DNA of 64,000 bases from an uncultured Candidatus Competibacteraceae bacterium (GCA_964545365.1 CAZJFM010000001.1:30948-94947); one strand, 5' to 3'; shown: positions 18,532 to 59,050, counted from the first letter of the stretch. Notes: generated from the letters alone by a model not told the origin. Made by a program: numbers and translations.

Positions 18532-18592
18532 CCAAATTCTTCTTGGTTGAGGAGTTACTTCAATCTTTCAATTGCTTTTGATAATTTTGAAT

Positions 18593-21211
18593 ATGAAGTT
18601 TTATGCCTCAATTTCACTCGAAACTATCACATTTATAGTCTTTTTTTTCGTTTGTGAGACCTTGAGTGCCCAAGGGGGGTATGATCAATGGTTTTTCTCC
18701 CAGCAAACGAATTATGGACTTTCATTTTCTCCAAATGGTTCAGTTGCTGTAACATCAACCCATGCAACTCCTTTTGCTGAGGAGGGTAGTGTTGTTGTTG
18801 TTGATCCAATCATTGGAAACCTTTTATTTTACTCAAATGGAAATGTGGTTTGGGATGGAAATCATAACGTGATGCCAAATGGGGTAGGGCTACTTGCCAA
18901 CCCTTCAGTTTCAGAAAAGTGTGAAACCATCCAAATTCCAGGTGAATGCGGCCGCTTCATGATGTTTCATTCTACAGCTGTTGCTGAGAATAATGGTAAT
19001 GGTAGTTTATACTACTCTATTGTAGATATGAATTTGCCAGGTAATGGTAGTATCGCATCCCCACTTGGTGACCTCGACCCAACCCACAAAAATGTTCCTG
19101 TAATGTCAAACCCTGTGGAAGGTCTGGAGATTATAAAAGGCCCTTCGGACACAGTGGCATGGCTATTTACTGGTGTAGTTGGAAGTGGAAATTTAGAGCT
19201 CTTTAAAATTACAGTTGGAGGTGGAATAATAAATCAGTCTACAATTCCCTTAGGCATCAATTATGACGATATAAGATCTTTAGTATTCTCTTACGAGTCC
19301 TCCAAACTTGCAGTTGTTTCAAATCAAGAAAGTAAGCCAGTTATTATTATAGATTTCGACCTTTATTCCGGAGCGGTAGGGGCTGTGAATCAAGTGCCTG
19401 GGTCAATAACAGGGCCCAGTAGCTTCTATTGGACAGGTTTTTTTGATGTAGAGTGGTCGCCAAGTGGAAGATGGCTTTATTTAGCAAAATACAGGCATGG
19501 CAATCTTGCTGGCGGTATTTACCAGTACGACTTACTAAATCCGGCAGTTCCAATAACTCTACAATATTCTAACCCAGGAGGAGGTTCCAATAATTGGGTT
19601 ACTGATTTAAAAAGGACTGTCAATGGTGAAATTTTGTTTTTTGACTATCAAGGTTCGAATGGGGGGACACAAATGACTTTAGGTGAGATCCAGAATGCTG
19701 ATTCTTCTAGTCCTCAATACGTTGCCTCCAATTTATCATTTAGTCAAAATTTTAGTCCTGCCCACAAGTTTTCGAATTCTTTGAGTTCTTTCCCTGCTCC
19801 AGAATTGAATGATGATTCAGTTGTCTTGAATTGCTTAAGTTCAGTTGATACTTTATTCCCTTTTTTGAATGACGACATCGTTGCCTCAATAGCTGATTTT
19901 AATTTCACAGTTATTCAGAACTTTTCTTCCGTTATAGGCACATTTAGTGGGGATACCTTGTTTGTAGCTAGTAATAGTTCATATTCCTTAGACACCTTAA
20001 TTTATGAAGTTTGCACTGTGGGGTGTAGTCCATTTTGCGATACAGCAATTATTGTGGTTTCAGATCAAGGCCCAAGCATATCCCTTCTTCAGGACACAAC
20101 TATACTTTGCAAACCAGATTCAATTTTTATTGATACCAATGGTGTTTCTTGGGATTCATTGATTTGGTCAGATGGTTCAAATGGTGCTGCTATTTTCATC
20201 GATACAGCTGGCTCATTAGAAGTTAAAGGTTATTACGGAAATTGTATTGTGAGTGATACCATTTCTGTCTTTTTCGCACCAAGCTTGATGGAACCAGATA
20301 CAACTTCCTTAATATTTTGTGAGGGAGACTCTCTTCTTTTGTTTTTTGAGTTGGAATGCGACCTTTGTACGTATCAATGGAACACTGGGGTCGTTTCAGA
20401 TACAATTTATGCCAATACAGATGGCGTTTATCGCTTCAGTTTTTGGAATAGTTGTGATTCTTCCTATCAGGACTTCGAGGTATTTAAAAGGAATCAGCCA
20501 CCTTCAATAGCGACTGTTGATACAATTGTTTGCCCTGAGGATTCCGTCGTATTTAGTCCTTTAAGTTATTCTAGTGACTCTAGTTTAACTTGGGCAGTTA
20601 ACGATACCTATATCCCGAGCGATACCAATTTGGTACTTGGTGACTTTTTTAATGAAGTTCGGGCATCCAACGAATGTGGAATGAATACCTTCTTCATAAA
20701 CGTTAGCTATTTGATGGAGCCATTGCCTTCTGATAGCGTAATTATTTCATGTTCAGACTCTTTGCTATTTAAATTCCCTGAAGCTCTTGTTGTTTTTGAC
20801 AGTACTGGAAACCATATTAATTCAGAGATTTGGATTAAGGAAAACGAGTCAATTACGGTCTCTTACCTTTATTGTGATAGTGTGCGCTTTTTTAATTTAT
20901 TTAAAAAGTCTATAACCGAAGATATTTCAAATGCAATCCTTTCAAATGTATTCACACCCAATGGTGACGGAATTAATGATTTTTTTCATCCTGTTCCACT
21001 ACAGTTCCTTAGTACCTCAAGCTTGATCGGGGAATTCTTTATTTTCAATAGGTGGGGTTCTGAACTTTTCCATTCAACCAGCCTTAAGACACCATGGGAG
21101 CCCAACTTGGACGTTCCAGAAGGGACCTACTATTGTGTAGTTATTCTTGGTGACTCTTGTTCCCCCGGTACCCAAACTAGGCTTGTTAAGTCTTTTCAAC
21201 TGTTCCGTTGA
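18593..21211 (+). CDS. Large secreted cell-surface protein with a T9SS type-B C-terminal sorting domain (gliding-motility-associated CTD); adhesin-like, paralog 1
   Basis: Signal peptide, an N-terminal roughly 250-aa domain shared with the next gene, and Cys-containing repeat modules. The C-terminus has the FTPNGDGINDFF...IFNRWGSELF motif typical of the TIGR04131/CHU_C sorting domain. Confidence 0.7.
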   Translation: MKFYASISLETITFIVFFFVCETLSAQGGYDQWFFSQQTNYGLSFSPNGSVAVTSTHATPFAEEGSVVVVDPIIGNLLFYSNGNVVWDGNHNVMPNGVGLLANPSVSEKCETIQIPGECGRFMMFHSTAVAENNGNGSLYYSIVDMNLPGNGSIASPLGDLDPTHKNVPVMSNPVEGLEIIKGPSDTVAWLFTGVVGSGNLELFKITVGGGIINQSTIPLGINYDDIRSLVFSYESSKLAVVSNQESKPVIIIDFDLYSGAVGAVNQVPGSITGPSSFYWTGFFDVEWSPSGRWLYLAKYRHGNLAGGIYQYDLLNPAVPITLQYSNPGGGSNNWVTDLKRTVNGEILFFDYQGSNGGTQMTLGEIQNADSSSPQYVASNLSFSQNFSPAHKFSNSLSSFPAPELNDDSVVLNCLSSVDTLFPFLNDDIVASIADFNFTVIQNFSSVIGTFSGDTLFVASNSSYSLDTLIYEVCTVGCSPFCDTAIIVVSDQGPSISLLQDTTILCKPDSIFIDTNGVSWDSLIWSDGSNGAAIFIDTAGSLEVKGYYGNCIVSDTISVFFAPSLMEPDTTSLIFCEGDSLLLFFELECDLCTYQWNTGVVSDTIYANTDGVYRFSFWNSCDSSYQDFEVFKRNQPPSIATVDTIVCPEDSVVFSPLSYSSDSSLTWAVNDTYIPSDTNLVLGDFFNEVRASNECGMNTFFINVSYLMEPLPSDSVIISCSDSLLFKFPEALVVFDSTGNHINSEIWIKENESITVSYLYCDSVRFFNLFKKSITEDISNAILSNVFTPNGDGINDFFHPVPLQFLSTSSLIGEFFIFNRWGSELFHSTSLKTPWEPNLDVPEGTYYCVVILGDSCSPGTQTRLVKSFQLFR

Positions 21212-24559: not shown

Positions 24560-24740
24560 AGCGCGTGGTCTTAATACGGAGCTTAAGCGGGAGGGATGGA
24601 GCCGATACCCCACAAGCCCAAAGCAATGACGCGCAAGGGCTTGCCGGGCGGCGCAACGCAAGCCACGGCAAGTCCTATGGGCGACTTGCTTTGGGGTGAG
24701 GAGTAAAGGTGAGAGCCCGTCCCTATGGGCCCGCCCAAAT
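24560..24740. other. GC-rich structured intergenic element between convergent genes
   Basis: A 10-bp inverted repeat CCCAAAGCAA (24617-24626) pairs with TTGCTTTGGG (24686-24695) around a GC-rich loop. GCCC-GTCCCTAT-GGGC forms a further hairpin. No ORF. Confidence 0.25.
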
Positions 24741-24965
24741 TCACTCCCCGTATTCTATGATTTCGTTGCCGTCCTTGTCTTTTCTGCTTCCCTTAGCTTT
24801 TAGTTCTATGGTGCCTTTTGGCTTTCGGGGCTCCGAATGGCCTCGGTTTGTGCTGTTGGGGTTGCTGCTTCCTTGGCGGGCTTTAAATAGACGGATTAGA
24901 AATTTTAGGGCATAGTACATGCCTATCACTAATAAAACGGTACGTGCTATGGCCCAGATTTTCAT
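24741..24965 (-). CDS. Small membrane-anchored protein (DUF4834-like?)
   Basis: 74 aa with an N-terminal TM helix (IARTVLLVIGMYYALKFLI) and a charged C-terminal tail, immediately downstream of the carB stop. The family assignment is uncertain. Confidence 0.3.
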   Translation of the reverse strand: MKIWAIARTVLLVIGMYYALKFLIRLFKARQGSSNPNSTNRGHSEPRKPKGTIELKAKGSRKDKDGNEIIEYGE

Positions 24966-27791: not shown

Positions 27792-28159
27792 GTTGCTTCG
27801 GTGTTGGGCAAAGGTAAGCAGCCTGATGCGGATTCGCCATTTTGAACCCCAAATCTTACGCGAGAATTGGGGGTGAGCTTTGGAAGCCCTGCTTCTCTCC
27901 GGCGTATGGCACAATAACCAATGCAGCCCTTCAAAAAATGCAGCTTCTCTTCACAAGCATTATACCCCCTGCCGATGAGCGTATGAAAAAGGAGAATTGG
28001 GGCAAGACTCTTTTGTTCCCAAACAATTCTCGTTAGGTACTGCCTTAAGATGGCTGCTCCCTCCTGTCTTTTATGGAGAGGCGGTGCCGAATTAAGCCAA
28101 AAGCTTGAAAGTAGGAGGTTATAAAGGCGCAAGCGGACTGGCCTAAGCCTATTTCTTCA

Positions 28160-35477: not shown

Positions 35478-35969
35478 ATGTCCGAACAAGAAGTACTCAA
35501 CCTTTTGCTCAAACAAACCCGCGAGCAAAGCCTAAATTACTTCCACAAAATCCCTACCGAAAACCTGCATGGCAGACTCCATTTGGAAGGCAAAGCATTA
35601 AATTCTCCATTTTGGATTTTGGCTCACCTGGCCGTAAGCAGCAATTTCTTATTGTTGCATGCCACCGGCGGCGACAGGCTAAAACTGCCTTGGGCCCGTC
35701 AGTTTGGTTTGGGTAGTACCGTACCTGCCCCCGAAGATTGCCCTCCATTGCAGGAAGTTCTCGACGCCCTAGCCGAAATTCAAACGAGGGCACTCGCGCA
35801 TATCGCCGCAATGAGCAGCGAGGAACTGAGCTTGCCCACCACCACCGGCACAGCCTTTGGCGGAGTGGACACCCGACGCCACATCATTGGCCACTGCATA
35901 CGCCACGAGGCCAGCCACGCCGGTCATTTGGCCTGGTTAGCAAAAGCTTGGGGCGCTGCCCTAATCTAA
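35478..35969 (+). CDS. DinB/YfiT-like metal-dependent hydrolase-fold protein
   Basis: Four-helix DinB-family His triad pattern (WILAHL...HIIGHCIRHEASHAGHL). Confidence 0.55.
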   Translation: MSEQEVLNLLLKQTREQSLNYFHKIPTENLHGRLHLEGKALNSPFWILAHLAVSSNFLLLHATGGDRLKLPWARQFGLGSTVPAPEDCPPLQEVLDALAEIQTRALAHIAAMSSEELSLPTTTGTAFGGVDTRRHIIGHCIRHEASHAGHLAWLAKAWGAALI

Positions 35970-36514
35970 AAAGAGTATCCGGCTCCCAAACGAAGGCTTG
36001 GAAGCACCGGAACACTACCGGAATTGCCATAGATTGCAATGCCTATGCCGCCCATAAAGGTAAAACCGCGACCCTCTAAAGGTTGTAGCCTGTAACCTAT
36101 ATAAAACAGCTCTGCTGCTGAGCTAAACATTACAGACCTTTGTTGAGTAAGGGATGGGCCGTATAGCGAAGTAATGCGGTTTCCAAAAGCGGTGGCCGAC
36201 ATAGATAACTCCAATTTACCCCGCTTTTTCCCCAACAAAAGGGAAGGGGTCACCGAAAGCGCAAAGCCATAATCGTCCTGATGGTTTCCTGTTCTTGAAA
36301 GAAAGGTATATTTTGTCGTACCTATACTGCCGCCAAGCCATAATTGCACTCCCGGCACTTCCAACAATCGGTATTGATATTGAAGCCCCAAACCGGCCGG
36401 CACTATGCCTCCCATTAGGCTGTGCCGCGGCCCCACAGGATGTATGGGATCATTGCTTTGCGCCATCGAAGGTAAACTGCACATCAACAAAAGGAAAAGA
36501 ATAATAGGTCGCAT
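35966..36514 (-). CDS. Small outer-membrane beta-barrel protein
   Basis: Signal peptide (MRPIILFLLLMCSLPSMAQS), alternating amphipathic beta-strands and a C-terminal aromatic residue (…GAGYSF). Confidence 0.4.
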   Translation of the reverse strand: MRPIILFLLLMCSLPSMAQSNDPIHPVGPRHSLMGGIVPAGLGLQYQYRLLEVPGVQLWLGGSIGTTKYTFLSRTGNHQDDYGFALSVTPSLLLGKKRGKLELSMSATAFGNRITSLYGPSLTQQRSVMFSSAAELFYIGYRLQPLEGRGFTFMGGIGIAIYGNSGSVPVLPSLRLGAGYSF

Positions 36515-36669
36515 AATTAGTATTTGTACTTTAAAGATACAAAATCGCAGCCATTGGTTGCAAGCACCCCCATTTTTAATCAATAACTTCAACCCAAATA
36601 CGATTTTTTTTTGAGGGAAGGGCCTATGAACAGGCTAAACCAGCTAAGGGTAGAAGCATGTTTAAAATT

Positions 36670-36830
36670 TGGGCGCCTATCCCGCTTTCGGCGGTAGTCC
36701 TCGTTCGGGGGCTTATTGGCCATAGCCCGCCGGAGCGTTCGCATGCGCTCCACGTCCACCGGGCTTGGCCAAAAAAGCCCCCGCCCTGTGGGCTACCTGC
36801 CTCTATCGGGGGCGCTTTGTGCTCCGAACG
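36670..36830. other. GC-rich, highly self-complementary intergenic element (candidate sRNA / cis-regulatory RNA / REP-like repeat); it includes the ychF terminator at 36771-36813 on the minus strand
   Basis: Hairpin GGAGCG-TTCGCATG-CGCTCC (36732-36751). Long-range pairing between GGGGGCTTATTGGCC (36707-36721) and GGCCAAAAAAGCCCCC (36767-36782). Stem GCCCCCG/CGGGGGC followed by a U6 run in the minus-strand sense. No CDS in any frame. Confidence 0.3.
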
Positions 36831-36831
36831 A

Positions 36832-37932
36832 TTAAACGTTAAATCGGAAATGCATTACGTCGCCGTCCTGCACCGTATATTCCTTGCCTTCTACCCGCAA
36901 TTTCCCCTGTTCCTTAGCTGCGGTTTCTGAACCCAGTCTATCGTAATCTTCAAAGGCAATTACCTCAGCACGAATAAAGCCTTTTTCAAAATCGGAGTGA
37001 ATTACACCGGCCGCTTGCGGAGCAGACATGCCCTTGCGAATGGTCCAAGCGCGCACTTCTTTTTCTCCGGCGGTAAAATAGGTTTGCAATTCGAGCAAGT
37101 GGTAGGCCTCTCGAATCAATTGGGCTACTCCCGGCTCCTTTAAGCCTAAGTCTTCCAAAAACATTTGCCGTTCCTCGGGGTCATCCAAGCCGGCAATTTC
37201 TGCTTCAATACCTACGGCAATAACCAAAATGGAGGCACCTTCACCGGCTACGGCAGTTTTTACCGCTTCGCTGTGGGTGTTTCCTGTGGTGGCGCTTGCT
37301 TCGTCTACATTGCACACATACAGCACCGGTTTGGCGGTGAGCAAAAACAACTCCTTTAAAAAAACCGATTGCTCTTCGCTAACTTCCAGGCTGCGGGCAG
37401 ATTTACCTTGGCTTAAATGGTCTTTTAAACGGAGGTACAGTTCGTGTTTCTTTTTGGCATCCTTATCGCTGCCAATTTTTGCCATTTTTTCTACACGGGA
37501 GATTTGTTTTTCAACCGTTTCTAAATCTTTAAGCTGCAATTCGGTATCAATAATCTCTTTGTCGCGCACGGGGTTAACTGATCCGTCTACATGGGTTACG
37601 TTGTCATCGTCAAAACAGCGAAGCACATGCAAAATGGCGTCGCATTCGCGGATATTGCCTAGGAATTTGTTTCCCAAACCTTCGCCTTCCGAAGCGCCTT
37701 TTACCAAACCGGCAATATCTACTATTTCTACCGTGGCAGGTACCAACTGTTGGGGGTTTACCAAATCGGCCAAACGTTGAATTCTGGGGTCAGGAACCTG
37801 AATGGTACCCACATTGGGTTCAATGGTGCAAAATGGAAAATTGGCGGCCTGCGCCTTAGCGTTGCTTAAGCAATTGAAGAGGGTCGATTTGCCCACATTT
37901 GGGAGTCCCACTATTCCACATTTTAGCGCCAT
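36832..37932 (-). CDS. ychF: Ribosome-binding ATPase YchF (Obg-family GTPase)
   Basis: MALKCGIVGLPNVGKSTLFN P-loop and a TGS domain. 366 aa. Confidence 0.9.
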   Translation of the reverse strand: MALKCGIVGLPNVGKSTLFNCLSNAKAQAANFPFCTIEPNVGTIQVPDPRIQRLADLVNPQQLVPATVEIVDIAGLVKGASEGEGLGNKFLGNIRECDAILHVLRCFDDDNVTHVDGSVNPVRDKEIIDTELQLKDLETVEKQISRVEKMAKIGSDKDAKKKHELYLRLKDHLSQGKSARSLEVSEEQSVFLKELFLLTAKPVLYVCNVDEASATTGNTHSEAVKTAVAGEGASILVIAVGIEAEIAGLDDPEERQMFLEDLGLKEPGVAQLIREAYHLLELQTYFTAGEKEVRAWTIRKGMSAPQAAGVIHSDFEKGFIRAEVIAFEDYDRLGSETAAKEQGKLRVEGKEYTVQDGDVMHFRFNV

Positions 37933-38037
37933 ATCGTTTGGTTTGTTTTAGAGATTACATGCCCTATTAAGCCGGCAAATATAGAACATCGCGTGGGTTA
38001 TTACAGGGGGCTATAATTTTGGAAAGTCCTAAGGAGT

Positions 38038-38595
38038 TTATTTTTTGGGGAACTTCATGCGGTAATCGGCATGGACTTGTCCTTTGCTTATGCGTTCCAA
38101 TTTGCTCTTGAGCATTTTTTTACGCAATGGACCCAAGTGGTCGGTAAACAGAATGCCCTCCAAATGGTCGTATTCATGTTGAATAATCCGTGCCGCCATG
38201 CCCTCAAACCAAGCTTCTTGGGGCTCAAACTTTTCGTTGTCCCAAGCCAACAAAACTCGGGGTTTGCGTTGCACGTCTTCGCGTATGCCGGGAATGCTTA
38301 AGCAGCCCTCGTTAAAGGCCCATTCTTGGCCTTCTTCTTCCAAAATTTCCGGGTTAATAAACACATGTTTAAAGTGTTCCATTTCCGGGTCTTCGTCTGC
38401 AAAGCTGCTGCCGTCCACAACAAAAAGCCTTATGGATGCACCCACTTGGGGAGCGGCAAGTCCTACACCGCTGGCTTGGTACATCGTATCCCACATATTT
38501 TGGATGAACTCCGACAAATTGGGGTGTTCGGGTTCAATTTCTCGGGTAGGTCGGCGCAAGCTTAAATCGCCATAGGCCACAATGGGTAAAATCAT
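38038..38595 (-). CDS. def: Peptide deformylase
   Basis: GVGLAAPQVG, EGCLSIPG and HEYDHLEG motifs. Confidence 0.9.
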   Translation of the reverse strand: MILPIVAYGDLSLRRPTREIEPEHPNLSEFIQNMWDTMYQASGVGLAAPQVGASIRLFVVDGSSFADEDPEMEHFKHVFINPEILEEEGQEWAFNEGCLSIPGIREDVQRKPRVLLAWDNEKFEPQEAWFEGMAARIIQHEYDHLEGILFTDHLGPLRKKMLKSKLERISKGQVHADYRMKFPKK

Positions 38596-39011
38596 AGAGC
38601 GGTGGTTTGGTTTTGCAGAAATCGTTGCAAAATATGGACAGCAGAAACTTTGTCAATAAGCCCTTTTTCTCTTCGTTTTTTGGGGCTGGTTCCGGCTTGA
38701 ATAAGTGTGTTCAGGGCTTGTTTGGAGCTGAAGGCCTCATCTTCCAGAAAGATGGGCAAAGTGGGAAAGGTCGATTGTATTTTTTTTTGGGTGTCTAAAA
38801 CCAGGGCAGTGGCATCGGTGGCTTCGCCTTGGTGGTTCAGAGGAAAACCTAATACCAAGCCTTTAACTTTTTCTTGTTCGAGGTAATTTTTGAGCCAGGG
38901 AAGGACCTTGGGGGTTTCCAAAGTGGTGAGTGCTTGGGCAAACATACCTAAAGGATCGGTTACGGCTACACCGGTTCGTTTGCTTCCCATGTCAAAGGCC
39001 AAGTACCTCAT
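38592..39011 (-). CDS. ruvX: Holliday-junction resolvase-like RNase (YqgF/RuvX)
   Basis: MRYLAFDMGSKRTGVAVTD start and RNase-H-like fold motifs. It overlaps the def start by 4 bp. Confidence 0.85.
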   Translation of the reverse strand: MRYLAFDMGSKRTGVAVTDPLGMFAQALTTLETPKVLPWLKNYLEQEKVKGLVLGFPLNHQGEATDATALVLDTQKKIQSTFPTLPIFLEDEAFSSKQALNTLIQAGTSPKKRREKGLIDKVSAVHILQRFLQNQTTAL

Positions 39012-39099
39012 GGTGCAAAAATACAAAAAGGGAGTGTTGAAGCCTAGTAGATTAGCTTTGTTGGACTGTTTTGGTACAAAAATTGCGTTAAAGTAAGGA

Positions 39100-39276
39100 A
39101 GGGGTTTGCGCGTGGGCGGGGCCCGGATGGAGGAGCATAGCTGACTGCAGGCGCACCGTGCTGCGGCACCGAGCGAGGAGGCCCCCGTTAATTAGCGGGG
39201 GACCCCGGAGCCGGTAGCCGCAGCCGGTGGGCCAAAGGCACTATGCCCGAGAGCCGGAAAGCCCCCCAAAAAAAGC
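39100..39276. other. GC-rich self-complementary intergenic element downstream of the PBP4 gene (candidate structured RNA / REP-like repeat)
   Basis: Hairpin CCCCCG-TTAATTAG-CGGGGG (39182-39201), GTGCTGCGGCAC, and CCGG...CCGG repeats. About 70% GC in an otherwise roughly 50% GC context. No ORF. Confidence 0.3.
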
Positions 39277-40713
39277 CTAATAGGTTTCGTACAGCAATTG
39301 AAACAGGGCTTCGAGTGCTCTTCGGGCTTGAGCAGATTCGGTGTCGAAATGGTTGATTATGGCGGCCAGGGCATATTGTTTGCCTGATTTTGCGGTGAGG
39401 TACCCGGCGTAGGCGCGCACACGTTCCATGGAGCCGCTCTTGGCGCGCAAGTTGCCTTTGAGCCCATCGCTATTGAAACTGCTTAGGGTGCCACGGCTTC
39501 CGGCTAATGGAAGGCTTTCGTAATAACGCTCAAACCAGGGTTTTTTAGACATGCGGCATAGAAATCGGGTTAAAAAATCAGGGCTTAGTCCGTTGAGTCG
39601 GCTGAGTCCGGAGCCGTCCACCGGGTAAATCCCTCCCGTGTGTGGCATTTGCTGCGCAATCCATTGCAAAAGCCCCTCCAAACCGCTTTCTCCTCCTCTT
39701 TCCTTTGCGTTTTCGGGGCTTAAGGCCCAAAGCAGTTGTTCGGCAAAAAGATTGTTGCTAAAGGTGTTGGTTACGGTTACCAGTTCATGCAGAGGAGGCG
39801 ATTTCCAGGTGCCCAGCAAGCGCGCCTTTTCGCGGTATTGAACTTCCGAAGGAAGTATGTTGTAAAAGCCACAGCTTATCCCTTTGTTTTGTAGGCCTAA
39901 TTGCAGCTGAAATAGGGCAAATAGGGGAGGGTTGGGGACGGAAGCCCGCACCACAAAATCGTTTTTGTTGGGCGGAATGCTTCCTCTAACTATTCGATTT
40001 TCTTGGTTTTGTGCACCAAATACCCAGGCCTCATCTCCCGAACCGGGAGGTCCTGAGGTGACCAAAGACTCAAAACGGCAATCGGGTACTTTGGGATACA
40101 CGGACAAAAGTTTGGCCGGACTTCCGGGGGCATAGGATTGAAAGTGCAGGTCGGTGCGGTTGTCGGCGAAACAAAGACCGGAATTTGGGCATCCAAAATA
40201 ATTGCCTAGGTCGGCCCAAACCCAAGTGTCCGGATTGCCTTGGGTGGAGAAGTTTCCAAGGTCTGCGTAGATGGCTTCCAGCCGGGACACCTTGTTTTGA
40301 AGTAGCCAGGTATGTATTTCCCGTAGTATTATATCGGGGTTGGTTTGTCCAAACCAGGTTGATCCGAGGCTGGGGTCTCCGGCGGCTTCAATCACCAAAG
40401 AGGGCTGGGCTCCGGCCTCTCCGGGCAGCAACCAAAATTGAGTTTCGAAGCGGAAATCGGGGCCCAAAACATCCATTGCTGCGGCCGTAGTGATGAGTTT
40501 TTGCACAGAGGCGGGCGTGTAGTACACTTCCGATTGCCACTCAAGTACCATTTCTTCAGTTTGCACATGCTTCAGAGAAAGCCCAAAGGATGCACCGGCC
40601 ATTCCCTCACGTTGAGCAAATTTTTTTAAGTACATTGTAAGCTCATCGGCAGACTGTGCCTGCACAAGAATAGGAGTACACAGCCACATGGCAATGAAAA
40701 GTCTCAACAGCAT
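39277..40713 (-). CDS. D-alanyl-D-alanine carboxypeptidase/endopeptidase, peptidase S13 (PBP4 family)
   Basis: Signal peptide, a SxxK-like active-site region (TPASVQKLITTAAAM) and a length typical of DacB/PBP4. Confidence 0.7.
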   Translation of the reverse strand: MLLRLFIAMWLCTPILVQAQSADELTMYLKKFAQREGMAGASFGLSLKHVQTEEMVLEWQSEVYYTPASVQKLITTAAAMDVLGPDFRFETQFWLLPGEAGAQPSLVIEAAGDPSLGSTWFGQTNPDIILREIHTWLLQNKVSRLEAIYADLGNFSTQGNPDTWVWADLGNYFGCPNSGLCFADNRTDLHFQSYAPGSPAKLLSVYPKVPDCRFESLVTSGPPGSGDEAWVFGAQNQENRIVRGSIPPNKNDFVVRASVPNPPLFALFQLQLGLQNKGISCGFYNILPSEVQYREKARLLGTWKSPPLHELVTVTNTFSNNLFAEQLLWALSPENAKERGGESGLEGLLQWIAQQMPHTGGIYPVDGSGLSRLNGLSPDFLTRFLCRMSKKPWFERYYESLPLAGSRGTLSSFNSDGLKGNLRAKSGSMERVRAYAGYLTAKSGKQYALAAIINHFDTESAQARRALEALFQLLYETY

Positions 40714-50790: not shown

Positions 50791-50982
50791 GTGGAGTTTA
50801 AACCAATACATGGAGCAAAAATTTGTGCCAGATGCAAGCAACGGTTTGTTTGCGACGAGTCGGTTGGCTGCTGGTGCGAAACCGTGCAGGTGCCCCGAGA
50901 GGCCCTCTCCATTTTACGTAAAAAGTACGTAGACTGTCTTTGTAAATCTTGCTTGGAATCCTTTAACCTTCGATCCAATTGA
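50791..50982 (+). CDS. Cysteine-rich CWC-family small protein
   Basis: 63 aa with a CxxC...CDESVGCWCE...CLCKSC pattern. Confidence 0.5.
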   Translation: MEFKPIHGAKICARCKQRFVCDESVGCWCETVQVPREALSILRKKYVDCLCKSCLESFNLRSN

Positions 50983-50989
50983 TTTTTTG

Positions 50990-51174
50990 GGCGGCTAATC
51001 CGTCTCCGGCTCCAAATCCTCGGTTGCCTGCCTGCTTTGGCTAAGCGGTGCGCGGGCTCGCTACCACTCCGCCTCCGCCCGCCAAGCCAAAGCGGCAGCC
51101 ATCCTCCGGGTTTTTCACCTCCGCCGGGCCGCTTATGCTTCAAAGTAAACCACACAAAACACAAATGCCGGGTA
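50990..51174. other. GC-rich intergenic element with multiple short inverted repeats
   Basis: No coding frame. GC is above 65% (GCCTGCCTGCTTTGGCTAAGCGG, CCTCCGCCCGCCAAGCCAAAGCGGCAGCC, CCTCCGGGTTTTTCACCTCCGCCGGG). It lies between convergent genes. Confidence 0.25.
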
Positions 51175-52389
51175 TTAGCCGCTGGTTTTTTTCCTTTCCG
51201 CTTCCACAACCCTATCTATAGCCTCTAAAATCAAGCCGCATATCTTTTTTATTTCTTTTTCGGTCATGATTAAAGGAGGGGCAATGCGCAAACTTTTCGC
51301 ATTAAATAAAAACCAGTCGCTTACCACACCAAGCTTTAAGCATTGTTCAATGACTTTAAAATTGAATGCTTCACTCTCAAACTCAACGGATAAAAGCAAA
51401 CCCTTGCCAAAAACTCCTTGAATTTTTGAATGGTTTAGGTACTTCCTAAAAGCAGCTTCCTTTTCTACGGCTTGTTCTCCCAGGCCCTCCTTGGCAATAT
51501 ATTTTAAACCGGCTAAACCGGCTGCACAGCTTAAAGGGTGACCGCCAAAGGTGGTTAAATGCCCCAAAATAGGAGCGTGGCTAAAATGCCGCATCAATTG
51601 GGGCGAAGAAATTAACGCACCTATAGGCATTCCTCCTCCCAAAGCTTTAGCGCTGAGTACCATGTCCGGAACAAAACCCAAAGTGCTTGTCGAAAACATA
51701 GGACCGGTGCGGCCTAACCCTGTTTGGATTTCATCCAAAACCAACAGAGTGCCCGTTTCTCGGCAGCGCGCGCAAAGGGCGTTTAAAAAGGCTTGCGAAA
51801 CGGTGCGGGTGCCTGCTTCAGCTCTTACTGTTTCAAAAAATACGGCAGCCGTTGACTGGTCTATTTGCTGCAAACTTTCTTTTTGTTCGTAATGTAAGGT
51901 AGTAATCCCCGGAAGCAAAGGTCGGTAGGCTCCTCTAAAGTATTCGCTTCCCATAAGGCTAAGGGCACCTTGAGACGACCCATGGTAGGCCTCATGAAAG
52001 GCTGCAATTTTGGGTCTCCCCGTGGCTCTTTTGGCCAATTTCATAGCCGCTTCCGTAGCCTCAGTTCCGGAGTTAACAAAATAAACACAGTCTAAGGGGG
52101 ATGGTAAAAACTCAGAAAGTTTTTTTGCAAACAATACTTGAGGGCCTTGCACCATTTCCCCGTAAACCATAACATGCGAGAATTTTCGCAGTTGCTTTTT
52201 AATGGCTTTATGTATTGCCGGATGCCCATGTCCTAAGCTACACACCGAAATGCCACCTATTAAGTCGTAAAGCCAGCGGCCCTGCACATCTTTCAACCGC
52301 ACTCCCCGTGCAGCTACCACTTCAAGTCCCATGGGTGCAGGACTAGTTTGTGCCAAATGCCTTAAGAAATCTCCGCGATGTGAATACAT
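51175..52389 (-). CDS. Class-III (acetylornithine/GABA-type) PLP-dependent aminotransferase
   Basis: Fold-type I class-III pattern (VNSGTEATEAAMKLA, LLVLDEIQTGLGRTG, PDMVLSAKALGGG). Confidence 0.8.
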   Translation of the reverse strand: MYSHRGDFLRHLAQTSPAPMGLEVVAARGVRLKDVQGRWLYDLIGGISVCSLGHGHPAIHKAIKKQLRKFSHVMVYGEMVQGPQVLFAKKLSEFLPSPLDCVYFVNSGTEATEAAMKLAKRATGRPKIAAFHEAYHGSSQGALSLMGSEYFRGAYRPLLPGITTLHYEQKESLQQIDQSTAAVFFETVRAEAGTRTVSQAFLNALCARCRETGTLLVLDEIQTGLGRTGPMFSTSTLGFVPDMVLSAKALGGGMPIGALISSPQLMRHFSHAPILGHLTTFGGHPLSCAAGLAGLKYIAKEGLGEQAVEKEAAFRKYLNHSKIQGVFGKGLLLSVEFESEAFNFKVIEQCLKLGVVSDWFLFNAKSLRIAPPLIMTEKEIKKICGLILEAIDRVVEAERKKTSG

Positions 52390-56244: not shown

Positions 56245-58848
56245 ATGCCCGTACTTTTAACAGGAATTTCCAGTCCCCTTATGGCGGCCAAAGAAAAAAA
56301 AAGAAAGCAAACTCCACAGAACGTTTTTCGGGATGCTCCTGAAGAAGAAGTGAAGCCCAAAAGCAAGGCTCCACGGCCCAAAAGTAGGGGTCTAAAATTG
56401 CGTCGCCCTGATTTTGTTAAAAGGTTTTGGTCCAGTAGTTCCAACAGGAAGCTTAGCGGCCTCGTGCTGCTTGTTTCCTCTGCTTTTTTGTTTGCCGCTT
56501 GTATAGAGTACTTAAGGCATTGGGAGTTTGACCAATCGGTGCTGCATCATGGTGCAGACCTGTCTGAGCCCCCCAGAAACAGCTTGGGTTTTATTGGAGC
56601 TTGGTTGGCGCACCAGTGTATGTTTCACGGGTTTGGTTGGTCCTTTTTGTTGATATTTCCCCCTTTATGGCGCACCGCCTTGAGGTGGTTTACCCAAAGA
56701 CCTTTGGCTTGGTTCTCTCTACCCTTTAGCCGGTTTGTTTTTGGTATGATCTGGCTGTCTGCAACTTTAGGACTTTTGGTGCCCGGTTTGCAAAATGGTT
56801 TGGCCGCAGGGTCTTTGGGGTTAAAAATGACGCACTTTTTCTCCTTGTATGCGGGAAGCTTAGGCATGGGGCTTTTGCTTTTGGCCTCCGCTTTGGCCTA
56901 TGTGGTCTTATATGAACCTTTAGTGGCCGGGTGGCTCTGGAGGTCGGCTCAAAAAGTGGGTGAAGAGATACCTGATGAAGAAGAAAGTGCTCCTCTGCCC
57001 GAAGTATATACCCACCGAAATGCTATTCCTGAGGATGCCTCGGAAGATGAGGTACATCCAGCAGAGGATGTAGAAGTGTCCGAGGACGATTTGCTGGTAA
57101 GGGATGTGACTCCAAACGAAGAAGATGTAGTGGAGACCCCTATTGCTGAAGGAGAGGGGAATGAAGAGTCTGTAGACGAGACCTACAGCCCTCAGGAAGG
57201 AGAAACGGTTTCTTTTGAGGTGCCTAAAGCCCCTCCAAAAGCTCCCAAACCTGGTCCCGAAGAGGATTTAACCATGGAAGTGGAAGTTGCAGAGGCCCAA
57301 GATGAGGTGGCCGACCTGAGTGAGGGGGAAAGTCCTAGGCAAGGGTTAGATACAGGATATGATCCCACTTTAGATTTGAGTGGTTTTAAATTTCCTCCGC
57401 TTGATTTATTGGTCGACCATGGAAATTCAGAGCTAAAGGTGGATCAGGAAGAGCTCGAAGCCAATAAGAATCGAATTGTTGAAACCCTGCGTAACTACGG
57501 GGTAGAAATTGCAAAAATCAAGGCTACCATTGGCCCTACGGTTACCTTGTACGAAATAGTGCCGGCACCGGGGGTGCGTATTTCAAAAATCAAAAACCTG
57601 GAAGACGATATTGCCCTAAGTTTGGCAGCTCATGGCATTCGAATTATTGCTCCTATTCCGGGAAAGGGAACCATTGGCATTGAGGTGCCTAATTCTAACC
57701 GCGCTGTGGTGGGAATGCGCAAGGTTATGCAAAGTGAAAAATTTGCCCAAACCCGATTCGATTTACCCATTGCTTTGGGTCGTACCATTTCCAACGAGGT
57801 TTATGTAGCCGATTTGGCAAAAATGCCCCACCTTTTGGTTGCCGGTGCTACCGGCCAAGGTAAATCGGTTGGAATTAATGCACTGCTTGTTTCCCTCTTG
57901 TACAAACGGCATCCTTCGGAACTTAAGTTTGTGATGGTAGATCCTAAAAAAGTGGAACTTACCCTGTATGGCATTATTGAAAAGCACTACTTAGCCAAAT
58001 TGCCCGACGAGGAAGAGCCCATTATTACGGACACCAAAAAAGTGATTCACACCTTGAATTCCTTGTGTATTGAGATGGACAACCGTTACGAGCTTCTAAA
58101 GACGGCCAAAGTTCGGAACCTAAAGGAATACAACAGTAAATTTAAGTCAAGAAAGTTGAATCCCGAGGAGGGGCACCGCTTTTTGCCCTATATCGTTTTG
58201 GTTATAGACGAATTTGCCGATTTGATTATGACGGCAGGAAAGGAAGTGGAAATGCCCATTGCACGAATTGCTCAGTTAGCCAGGGCGGTGGGAATTCACC
58301 TTATTATTGCTACCCAGCGGCCTTCGGTAAACATTATTACCGGAACCATTAAGGCAAACTTCCCGGCGCGTTTGGCATTTAGGGTTTCTTCTAAGGTAGA
58401 TTCTCGTACCATTTTAGATGCCGGAGGGGCAGAACAGCTGATTGGGCAAGGAGATATGTTGCTTTCTTTGGGGAGCGACTTGGTACGTTTGCAATGTCCT
58501 TTTGTAGACACCCCTGAGGTTGAAGATATTGTCCGTTTTATTGGGGAGCAACGAGGCTACCCGGAGGCCTTCTTATTGCCGGAATATGAAGGCGATGAAG
58601 AAAGCGCTAAAGGAGGCCTAGACCCATCGGAGAAAGATAGCTTGTTTAACGAGGCTGCTACCATTATTGTGCAAAGCCAACAGGGAAGTGCCTCCTTACT
58701 GCAGCGCAAGTTAAACATTGGATATAATCGGGCGGGAAGGCTCATTGACCAAATGGAAGCTGTGGGCATTGTAGGGCCAAATAGGGGAAGTAAGCCTAGA
58801 GAAGTGCTCATTAAAGATGAGGCCAGTTTGGATATTTATTTGGATTGA
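56245..58848 (+). CDS. ftsK: DNA translocase FtsK/SpoIIIE
   Basis: N-terminal TM helices, a Pro/Glu-rich linker, the Walker A motif LVAGATGQGKSVGIN, Walker B VLVIDEFADL, and a C-terminal winged-helix gamma domain. Confidence 0.9.
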   Translation: MPVLLTGISSPLMAAKEKKRKQTPQNVFRDAPEEEVKPKSKAPRPKSRGLKLRRPDFVKRFWSSSSNRKLSGLVLLVSSAFLFAACIEYLRHWEFDQSVLHHGADLSEPPRNSLGFIGAWLAHQCMFHGFGWSFLLIFPPLWRTALRWFTQRPLAWFSLPFSRFVFGMIWLSATLGLLVPGLQNGLAAGSLGLKMTHFFSLYAGSLGMGLLLLASALAYVVLYEPLVAGWLWRSAQKVGEEIPDEEESAPLPEVYTHRNAIPEDASEDEVHPAEDVEVSEDDLLVRDVTPNEEDVVETPIAEGEGNEESVDETYSPQEGETVSFEVPKAPPKAPKPGPEEDLTMEVEVAEAQDEVADLSEGESPRQGLDTGYDPTLDLSGFKFPPLDLLVDHGNSELKVDQEELEANKNRIVETLRNYGVEIAKIKATIGPTVTLYEIVPAPGVRISKIKNLEDDIALSLAAHGIRIIAPIPGKGTIGIEVPNSNRAVVGMRKVMQSEKFAQTRFDLPIALGRTISNEVYVADLAKMPHLLVAGATGQGKSVGINALLVSLLYKRHPSELKFVMVDPKKVELTLYGIIEKHYLAKLPDEEEPIITDTKKVIHTLNSLCIEMDNRYELLKTAKVRNLKEYNSKFKSRKLNPEEGHRFLPYIVLVIDEFADLIMTAGKEVEMPIARIAQLARAVGIHLIIATQRPSVNIITGTIKANFPARLAFRVSSKVDSRTILDAGGAEQLIGQGDMLLSLGSDLVRLQCPFVDTPEVEDIVRFIGEQRGYPEAFLLPEYEGDEESAKGGLDPSEKDSLFNEAATIIVQSQQGSASLLQRKLNIGYNRAGRLIDQMEAVGIVGPNRGSKPREVLIKDEASLDIYLD

Positions 58849-58849
58849 A

Positions 58850-59050
58850 CCAGGGGAGCGTTTGCTCTTGGACGTGGAACTTTGCGGCAAGGATTGCAGC
58901 GGTAGCCCACAGTTTCAAGGCCTTGGTATTTGCGGCTTGCCGGGAGCGACCATAGGAAGCTCCCCGGAAAGCCTGCAAAACCTAGCCTTGAAACGAGGAC
59001 TACAAGCGGAAAGCCTGCTCGGCCGCCCAATCCAATATTCATGCATCTAA
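58850..59050. other. GC-rich structured intergenic element between ftsK and lolA
   Basis: Hairpin CCGGGAGC-GACCATAGGAA-GCTCCCCGG and a GGAAAGCC motif also seen near 39255. The ftsK-lolA spacer is about 260 bp. Confidence 0.25.

Follow-up and report, generated by a model that had tools for sequence, protein, structure and literature searches.

In a 64,000-nucleotide (nt) stretch of DNA deposited as an uncultured Candidatus Competibacteraceae bacterium (GCA_964545365.1, CAZJFM010000001.1:30948-94947; hereafter the window), the spacer behind ychF holds an extensively base-paired element, E1. From its sequence and predicted helices, we assign E1 with high confidence to the Flavo-1 family (Rfam RF01705), as a long-stem, GC-rich member. 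The host is an uncultured Flavobacteriales lineage, represented by metagenome assemblies alone. A sequence-only reading of the spacer had proposed a small RNA (sRNA) or riboregulator specific to this locus, acting for ychF or for the neighbouring outer membrane protein (OMP)-like gene. This did not survive the comparison, as the element has at least five copies in the window and at least nine loci in the clade, counting sister genomes, in varied gene contexts and both orientations. Taken as a whole, our preferred explanation is that E1 is a long-stem Flavo-1 element, a dispersed hairpin resembling repetitive extragenic palindromic (REP) sequences, and the 3' end of ychF transcripts; we hold it with moderate confidence.

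A probable long-stem Flavo-1 element behind ychF

The first base of E1 (36661-36832, minus strand) is also the final base of the ychF stop codon; in E1, a 5' tail is followed by a rod of 143 nt and a tail of CCAAA. Our second covariance model of the family, R2, matches it with 169 bits over its full length (1-170). Read along the minus strand, the single-stranded 5' tail AUCGUUCGGAGCACAAA (36816-36832) carries a GGAGC(A)nAA motif common to the copies E3, E4 and E6 introduced below. It is followed by the 5' strand of a closing helix, P1 (GCGCC, 36811-36815), which pairs with GGCGC at 36673-36677. Between the two strands of P1 lie the 5' half of the Flavo-1 base, CCCG-AUAGA-GGC-A-GGUAG-C-CC-ACA-G (36786-36810), aligning with the published ccGAUuGaAGcGG..AGCCCACAG; a distal GC-rich hairpin of about 80 nt (36706-36785), which has the apical hairpin 36732-36751 at its tip, differs between copies and is short in classical Flavo-1; and the 3' half of the base, AACGAGGACUAC-C-GCC-GAAAG-CGGG-AUA (36678-36705), aligning with the published GCGAGGACUAC..AAGCGGAAAGCCCG. 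The 3' tail CCAAA (36668-36672) directly follows P1 and is present in all five window copies.

Every copy, folded alone, adopts the same rod. From the outside inward it comprises P1 (5 bp), P2, an internal loop of GAUnGA(G) against GA(A/G)AG, P3 and P4, a second loop of CCCACAG against CGAGGA, and the long distal hairpin. The conserved unit exceeds the rod, as it includes the GGAGC(A)nAA 5' tail and CCAAA; beyond these, the flanks of orthologous copies diverge.

Flavo-1 was described by Weinberg et al. in 2010 as a likely RNA with covariation, and the original paper reports only its occurrence (PMC2864571). Rows of the published seed range from 58 to 149 nt and already include members of 132-149 nt; those of Flavobacterium psychrophilum and F. 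johnsoniae read GCGUGAGGGAUUGCAGCGGUAGCCCACAG-CCUGACGAAGG-AAGUGCGAGGACUACAAGCGGAAAGCCCG (PMC2864571). These rows are near letter-for-letter the base of E1 and of E2, a second copy in the window (GCGGCAAGGAUUGCAGCGGUAGCCCACAG...CGAGGACUACAAGCGGAAAGCCUG in E2 against GCGUGAGGGAUUGCAGCGGUAGCCCACAG...CGAGGACUACAAGCGGAAAGCCCG in F. psychrophilum). Over the conserved 5' base, (GCGUG)AGGGAU[UA]G[N]AGC-GG[UA]AGCCCACAG, E2 agrees with F. psychrophilum NC_009613.1/727266 in 26 of 29 letters, and E1 reads GCGCC-CCCGAUAGAGGCAGGUAGCCCACAG. Over the conserved 3' base, GCGAGGACU[AU][CU]..A[AG]CGGA[AU]AGCCCG, E1 reads ACGAGGACUACCGCCGAAAGCGGG and E2 reads ACGAGGACUACAAGCGGAAAGCCUG, with 23 of 24 letters matching. 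The base helices of Flavo-1 (H1-H4) are kept as well: helices 2-5 of our alignment are 78-100% paired, with double changes in 9 of 13 pairs. E1 and its relatives thus share with Flavo-1 the base sequence and helices (ccGAUnGnAGc / GGUAGCCCACAG ... GCGAGGACUAC / AAGCGGAAAGCCCG), a distal stem of variable length, the occurrence in many intergenic copies in Bacteroidota (five in these 64 kb), and the closing helix and CCAAA in the flanks. Unlike classical Flavo-1, all copies of this clade have a GC-rich distal hairpin of about 80 nt, and the small extra hairpin that precedes the 3' strand of P1 is missing from most of them, being kept only in E3 and E6.

What counts against this assignment is that the RF01705 model itself, with its gathering score of 42 bits, gave no match to E1-E5 at E ≤ 10, either in the locus (36450-36950) or in the whole window. 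The case for membership is thus built on direct alignment and on transitive matches of models. We tentatively attribute the failure of the 76-nt Rfam model to an insertion of about 80 nt where about 11-23 nt are expected. R2 matched two short relatives, one in a Pedobacter metagenome-assembled genome (MAG; L008, 5729-5842, 49.7 bits) and one in an IMG/VR contig (L102, 3715-3824, 39.5 bits). With Rfam, both align to Flavo-1 along the whole model, at 28.6 bits (E = 1.7e-4) and 32.8 bits (E = 9e-4), respectively, and both stay below the gathering score. Both carry a 5-bp closing helix, an extra hairpin ACCC-loop-GGGU and CCAAA, as do the published flanks of classical members (PMC2864571, supplementary file 29), with the CCAAA tail present in the flanks of both F. 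johnsoniae and F. psychrophilum Flavo-1. The published flanks include the closing helices GCGUG...CACGC and GCAUU...AAUGC, each with CCAAA, and so match features that were derived independently here. Judging from these flanks, the curated 76-position RF01705 model appears truncated at both ends.

Other searches with Rfam returned little. On the locus and the window at E ≤ 10 there was nothing relevant, a CRISPR-DR28 match at E = 3 being chance, and across the whole 64 kb no family reached its gathering score, with transfer RNA, ribosomal RNA, riboswitch and leader families included. The statement of the sequence-only reading that the stretch has no signature of transfer-messenger RNA, RNase P, signal recognition particle (SRP) RNA or 6S RNA was borne out, and no Rfam model reached threshold. 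The same reading had named a match to a known Rfam family as something that would tell against its proposal; no model did so at threshold, yet the element belongs in all probability to a described family, which weakens the claim to novelty. A degenerate Flavo-1-like pattern retrieved 72 stretches from IMG/VR, of which only L102 was matched by R2, and none of 20 loci checked reached the Rfam threshold. Likewise, 20 Flavobacteriales ychF loci contained no Flavo-1 at the gathering score.

Copies in the window and in sister genomes

A weak blastn match led to a second copy in the region 58849-59040 (plus strand), between ftsK and lolA. GGTAGCCCACAG and AACGAGGACTAC occur exactly in both this copy, E2, and E1, spaced by 81 and 80 nt in the two; the intervening sequence is unrelated and equally paired. 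The cores of six E1 and E2 orthologs are all exactly 143 nt long. A first covariance model, built from these orthologs, found three more copies in an unfiltered scan of the window, and the second model, R2, built from 12 sequences of this clade only, found exactly five. All five are intergenic and GC-rich, about one per 10-13 kb, and about 170 nt long, with 56-69% GC against roughly 48% in the genome. Pairwise identity of the five cores is 55-67%. The four copies other than E1 fill a large share of the window's long intergenic regions.

The contexts of the copies differ. E1 lies behind ychF between tandem genes, with orthologs in L081, L082, L083 and L171. E2 (58869-59038, plus strand) also lies between tandem genes, ftsK (56245-58848, plus strand) and lolA (ATG at about 59110, plus strand), with orthologs in L095, L096 and L097. 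E3 (24571-24746, plus strand) sits between convergent genes, behind a 128-aa open reading frame (ORF), and keeps the small hairpin (CCC-UAU-GGG) as in classical Flavo-1. E4 (50979-51148, minus strand) lies behind an aminotransferase gene (51175-52389, minus strand) that is convergent with folB. E5 (39103-39277, plus strand; orthologs in L082, L092 and L171) lies between a PBP4-type peptidase S13 gene (39277-40713, minus strand) and ruvX (38592-39026, minus strand), antisense to both. A further copy, E7, was found in a sister genome (L095, 15881-16024, plus strand) between divergent DUF2851 and gyrA/topoIV-type genes; it has a different outer closure and no CCAAA tail, and because its neighbours diverge it cannot be the 3' end of any gene. 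The same locus ends in an incomplete copy (20551-20648). As copies occupy tandem, convergent and divergent gaps in both orientations, the family cannot generally be a leader or a 3' untranslated region (UTR) element.

These contexts bear most directly on the notion of a locus-specific regulator, be it an sRNA derived from the ychF 3' UTR or a leader of the OMP-like gene, with a distinct terminator for ychF located at the regulator's 5' end. E1 does lie between the two genes and on their strand; a GCCCCCG...CGGGGGC sequence with a U6 run is present; and the gene downstream of E1, of E2 and of the Pedobacter copy in each case encodes an exported or envelope protein. However, the same element is found behind ftsK, behind the aminotransferase gene and elsewhere, between convergent as well as divergent genes, so that the paralogs contradict this idea. 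Moreover, the promoter-like block of the OMP-like gene lies downstream of E1, and in the conserved fold the bases that make up the U6 run and the 7-bp stem have other partners. We therefore regard a locus-specific regulator as very improbable.

A giant-gene locus gave further copies. An inverted pair of elements (L171, 19777-19950, minus strand, and 20006-20185, plus strand) lies upstream of a giant PKD/CHU_C gene, and two sister genomes (L171, and L082 with 18587-18756, plus strand) have the inverted pair between a hexapeptide-repeat gene and this 3176-aa PKD/CHU_C gene. The window (regions 24571-24746 and about 27900-28100) has a different, 977-aa gene there, and E3 lies on its far side in the opposite orientation. 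E3 is 71-79% identical to E6 of L082 and L171, although its context is another one. These observations suggest a rearrangement or gene replacement bounded by elements at the giant-gene locus.

In one related genome (L092, 3819-3864), the Logan contig stops 45 nt past the ychF stop codon, within the element. GC-rich hairpins of this kind may break short-read assemblies, which may leave the elements under-represented in MAGs.

A small hairpin just behind the ftsK stop codon (58850-58871, plus strand) differs in sequence in the L095 and L097 orthologs and still pairs there, several of its sense-strand pairs being G.U. The actual terminator hairpin of ftsK is probably this one, distinct from E2.

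Covariation and slow evolution of orthologous copies

The block of about 160 nt from the ychF stop codon onward is almost invariant in four related genomes. The E1 core differs by two changes in L082 and by four in L083 (98.6% and 97.3% identity over 143-148 nt); third codon positions of ychF are 82% and 68% identical in the same genomes, a synonymous divergence of 18-32%. Orthologous copies evolve far slower than synonymous sites. One of the four L083 changes is a compensatory replacement of C-G by U-A. In the E4 ortholog (L095, 1832-2001), GGU/GCC in P3 has become GAC/GUC, with a compensatory change from G-C to A-U and a change from U.G to C-G, and the E6 orthologs differ by two double changes.

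Comparison across homologous regions, which the sequence-only reading had put forward as a check, revealed strong covariation. In a MAFFT alignment of 12 rows, 79.6% of the cells are paired, against 61.4% after shuffling, and 38 of 53 pairs have double changes; none of 500 shuffles reached this, and slid controls gave 34-49%. In a model-fitted alignment of 20 rows, the corresponding values are 83.2% against 60.1%, with double changes in 45 of 53 pairs, again none of 500 shuffles, and slid controls of 35-47%. Of the two results, the one from MAFFT is the more cautious, because model fitting biases the other alignment in favour of the structure. P1 is 93.7% paired in the alignment and has double changes in four of its five pairs; among the copies and the published Flavo-1 members it takes the forms GCGGC/GCCGC, GCGUG/CACGC, GCAUU/AAUGC and GUGUU/AACAC. 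Selection acts both on pairing and on the sequence of the loops.

One reading of this conservation is that each copy works as a structured RNA module served by a dedicated protein partner. That protein would recognise the base, with its tandem G.A-type purine loops and CCAAA, and the distal stem would act as a spacer; the module might be co-transcribed, or released from longer transcripts through processing such as a cut at the P1 foot. The strong covariation, which includes the closing helix, and the near-invariance of orthologs, loops included, agree with such a module, as does the original rating of Flavo-1 as a likely RNA. All five copies favour one and the same strand, the modelled one, irrespective of the direction of the neighbouring genes: 70% of its unpaired bases are purines, and it carries 5-9 GGA motifs against 0-2 on the opposite one. 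Changes from U.G to C-G or U-A in E4 and E5 also fit the modelled strand. Against it, a double change in E2 of L097 (G-C to C.A) fits the opposite strand only, and a conserved C.A mismatch in E1 and E2 is a U.G pair on the other strand; the overall count of G.U against C.A, 14 to 9, leaves the choice of strand ambiguous. No conserved promoter or terminator flanks the copies, and E5 and E7 would require transcription of their own. Many Flavo-1 matches in F. psychrophilum are untranscribed or antisense (PMC9723704). On balance, we think an RNA module of this kind unlikely.

At two of the junctions, those behind ychF and between ftsK and lolA, the nearest outside relatives have no copy. Those compared at ychF (ychF identity 77-79%) lack the element, differ in gene order and have spacers of about 78 nt, and relative L098 (LolA identity 55%) has a 26-nt spacer between ftsK and lolA and no copy. 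A genome scan based on ychF gave, among the matches listed, relatives at ≤72% identity, all without the element. Among 80 other Bacteroidota, whose ychF neighbourhoods amount to about 560 kb, the only copy was the short relative in the Pedobacter MAG. An exact search with the 20-mer of the apical hairpin returned two chance matches in GC-rich coding sequence among Joint Genome Institute metagenome contigs and none in IMG/VR; a two-motif pattern had no match in IMG/VR, and blastn against plasmids and phages had none either.

In this clade, ruvX, def and ychF are co-directional (36832-39026 in the window); in the nearest relatives, L084-L089, ychF is convergent with def-ruvX. This contrast in gene order implies that an inversion accompanies the appearance of the elements at these junctions.

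Candidate explanations: dispersed REP-like hairpin, DNA substrate or terminator

The E1 family resembles REP and REPIN elements, which are associated with REP-associated tyrosine transposases (RAYTs, or TnpA-REP), in several respects. They too are GC-rich extragenic hairpins in many copies, often just behind genes and in either orientation, and combine a structured hairpin with a short conserved single-stranded motif. REP/REPIN-RAYT elements are known stabilisers or terminators of transcript 3' ends (PMC3733652, PMC6006769), and 'atypical secondary structures' flank Bacteroidetes RAYTs of subclass 2.6 (PMC6006769). In favour of a dispersed element, the Flavo-1 matches in the published F. psychrophilum transcriptome are on the sense or the antisense strand or lie away from transcribed regions, 'without real clues on function' (PMC9723704). 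We consider a dispersed, REP-like nature of the element to be evenly poised, and a role of E1 as a 3'-end hairpin at the ychF locus to be a more tentative proposal.

According to this proposal, the ancestor of this Flavobacteriales clade would have acquired the element in gaps between its genes, and selection on the fold would have kept it since. As E1 lies on the sense strand of ychF immediately past the stop codon, it would be transcribed as the 3' end of ychF. A rod of roughly -90 kcal/mol would then arrest or terminate transcription, or block 3' exonucleases, and ychF would be insulated from the OMP-like gene, which has its own promoter-like block.

A number of observations weigh against this explanation. 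REP units are 20-40 nt long and closely similar to one another, unlike the E1 family, whose members are about 170 nt long, 55-67% identical in their cores and marked by compensatory changes; the close similarity that REP copies owe to recent amplification from a master sequence is thus not seen among the five in the window. The GT[AG]G foot of REPs is lacking: GTAG/CTAC occurs in E1 and E2 only, inside the rod and not at its foot, and E3 has ATAC, E4 AAAA, E5 ATAG and E6 GCAC or GTAC. Without a conserved GTAG foot and at 55-67% identity, the copies are not classical REPs. A regex search of six-frame translations of the window and the clade loci found no ORF with the HUH/Y motifs of a Y1/HUH transposase, although these cover only about 150 kb and say little about the whole genome. 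The flanks of the copies show neither conserved terminal repeats nor target duplications. The copies are old and diverged, and their orthologs are under strong purifying selection including the loops, unlike typical selfish REPs or MITEs (miniature inverted-repeat transposable elements). The purine excess of the unpaired positions noted above (70% in every copy) is on the strand annotated by Weinberg et al. and looks like that of a functional RNA. The rod is followed by CCAAA and not by a U-tract, and is thus no canonical intrinsic terminator. Finally, a 3'-end role cannot be what the family does in general, given that E5 runs antisense to both neighbouring genes and that E7 is flanked by divergent ones.

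The REP comparison also raises an explanation purely at the level of DNA, in which a single-stranded DNA hairpin is recognised by a RAYT-like HUH/Y1 enzyme and any effects on RNA are incidental. The distribution of the copies is dispersed, intergenic and independent of orientation; a covarying hairpin with an invariant single-stranded CCAAA follows the logic of HUH substrates; and E3 and E6, at 71-79% identity, sit in different contexts beside a variable giant-adhesin locus. The structures flanking RAYT subclass 2.6 offer a lead from the literature, but their link to Flavo-1 is only putative. The lack of a GT[AG]G foot common to the copies and of any HUH/Y-motif ORF in the roughly 150 kb searched speaks against the explanation as well, and the copies are individually conserved and not recently amplified. 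We find it rather improbable. A further point in its favour is that two Flavo-1 seed accessions, NC_006873 and NC_004703, are presumably Bacteroides plasmids.

MITEs of the ERIC and Correia type, found in transcribed intergenic regions, are imperfect palindromes with a length of about 127-155 bp, and their long RNA hairpins alter the processing and stability of mRNAs. These families have conserved terminal inverted repeats, target duplications and mutually similar copies. The E1 family differs on each count: its terminal helix covaries (GCGCC, GCGGC, GCGGG, GGGGC), no target duplication is visible and the copies are deeply diverged. A covarying terminal helix without target duplication excludes classical MITEs.

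Like an intrinsic terminator, E1 is a very stable GC-rich hairpin directly past a stop codon on the sense strand. Unlike one, it has 143 nt with conserved internal loops, much more than termination would call for, and some copies lie where no transcript needs ending. A loop of 3-8 nt followed by a U-tract was not found; the rod continues into CCAAAUUUU.

Several other candidates were rejected. The end sequences misfit the RYYYAAC / GTTRRRY cores of integron attC sites, and the neighbours are syntenic housekeeping genes (ychF, ftsK, ruvX). There is no central bubble as in 6S RNA, no GGAA loop or other motif of SRP RNA, and the bulged strand lacks the GA of a kink-turn. A hidden small ORF was discarded, as orthologs differ by an indel of 2 nt that disrupts both open frames, +0 and -2. 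The abundance of GGA motifs prompted the idea of a CsrA-type sponge, for which no partner is known in this phylum. A search for the Bacteroidetes -7 box found no conserved promoter upstream of the copies.

The spacer between ychF and the OMP-like gene

Upstream of E1 and on the same strand lies ychF (36832-37932, minus strand), with the Pfam domains MMR_HSR1 and YchF-GTPase_C as read in the syntenic locus. The OMP-like gene (35966-36514, minus strand; ATG at 36514) lies 153 nt downstream of E1 and encodes a 182-aa signal-peptide protein ending in ...GAGYSF, for which Pfam gave no match. Among 5.8 billion proteins, it clusters with only three homologs, whose contigs led to the syntenic loci; a fourth genome was added to these. 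It is a lineage-restricted, putative small outer-membrane protein. A promoter-like block (36532-36563, minus strand), consisting of TTG, 21 nt and TATCTTTA, ends 17 nt before its ATG and is invariant between the syntenic loci; by its sequence it resembles the -33/-7 promoter type of Bacteroidetes. The roughly 100 nt that separate E1 from this block have diverged between orthologous loci.

The sequence-only reading was right that the stretch is gene-free and GC-rich: no gene lies in the 317-nt spacer, and GC is 0.67 at 36700-36799 against about 0.45-0.53 around it. Extensive base-pairing was likewise confirmed when both strands of 36600-36840 were folded. The folding energies are -106 kcal/mol for the minus and -110 kcal/mol for the plus strand, with z-scores of -4.8 and -4.7, and none of 200 shuffles was as stable. 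The hairpin GGAGCG-TTCGCATG-CGCTCC lies exactly at 36732-36751, where it had been placed. A long-range pairing described as 15 bp exists and was overstated, as it consists of 9 bp and 7 bp split by a bulge and is 81% complementary over 16 nt. CCGC-TTTCG-GCGG is present as sequence and is not a conserved stem, its CCGC and GCGG bases pairing long-range in the family fold. For the proposed pairing of the ends, TCGTTCGG and CCGAACGA are found at 36701-08 and 36824-31, but CGTTCGG/CCGAACG is not conserved; it is broken without compensation in L082 and L083 and absent from the paralogs.

Comparison across the family lends no support to the textbook intrinsic terminator that had been proposed for ychF. 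GCCCCCG-N23-CGGGGGC-U6 does exist as sequence, with a loop of 23 nt. A terminator scan of the minus strand made no call, the proposed GCCCCCG/CGGGGGC stem included. Both arms of this stem have other partners in the conserved fold, neither the U6 run nor the 7-bp stem is a family feature, and U6 is not conserved in the paralogs. The associated layout of a terminator plus a remainder of roughly 150 nt also fell away, as the whole 143-nt core is a single rod closed by a 5-bp helix. Thus, what stands of the original proposal is a genuine, selected and extensively paired element; its regulatory part does not, as the OMP-like gene has a separate promoter-like block and no conserved promoter precedes the copies.

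Implications for the Flavo-1 family

These results remove a false lead, in that E1 is no regulator specific to ychF or the OMP-like gene. They also indicate that the Rfam model of Flavo-1 misses a whole lineage-specific expansion of long, GC-rich members. The covarying 5-bp closing helix and the invariant CCAAA tail, both outside the published model, and the slow evolution of orthologs are apparently not spelled out in the sources consulted. These three features should be useful for rebuilding the model, or for testing whether Flavo-1 is an RNA, REP-like DNA, or both.

Four features keep open the idea of a dedicated reader: orthologs are nearly invariant, the closing helix covaries, the tail does not vary and the loops of one strand are rich in purines. 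Flavo-1 copies would then be individually selected RNA or single-stranded DNA modules whose base has a fixed three-dimensional form and is read by one dedicated protein. The reader might be the Bacteroidetes-specific RAYT subclass 2.6 enzyme, in which case its cognate 'atypical' hairpins would be Flavo-1, or else a factor for RNA processing that cleaves beside CCAAA, where the closing helix has its foot. We offer this joint proposal as a speculative one that is probably wrong. If it were true, an orphan Rfam family would gain a partner and a mechanism after 15 years.

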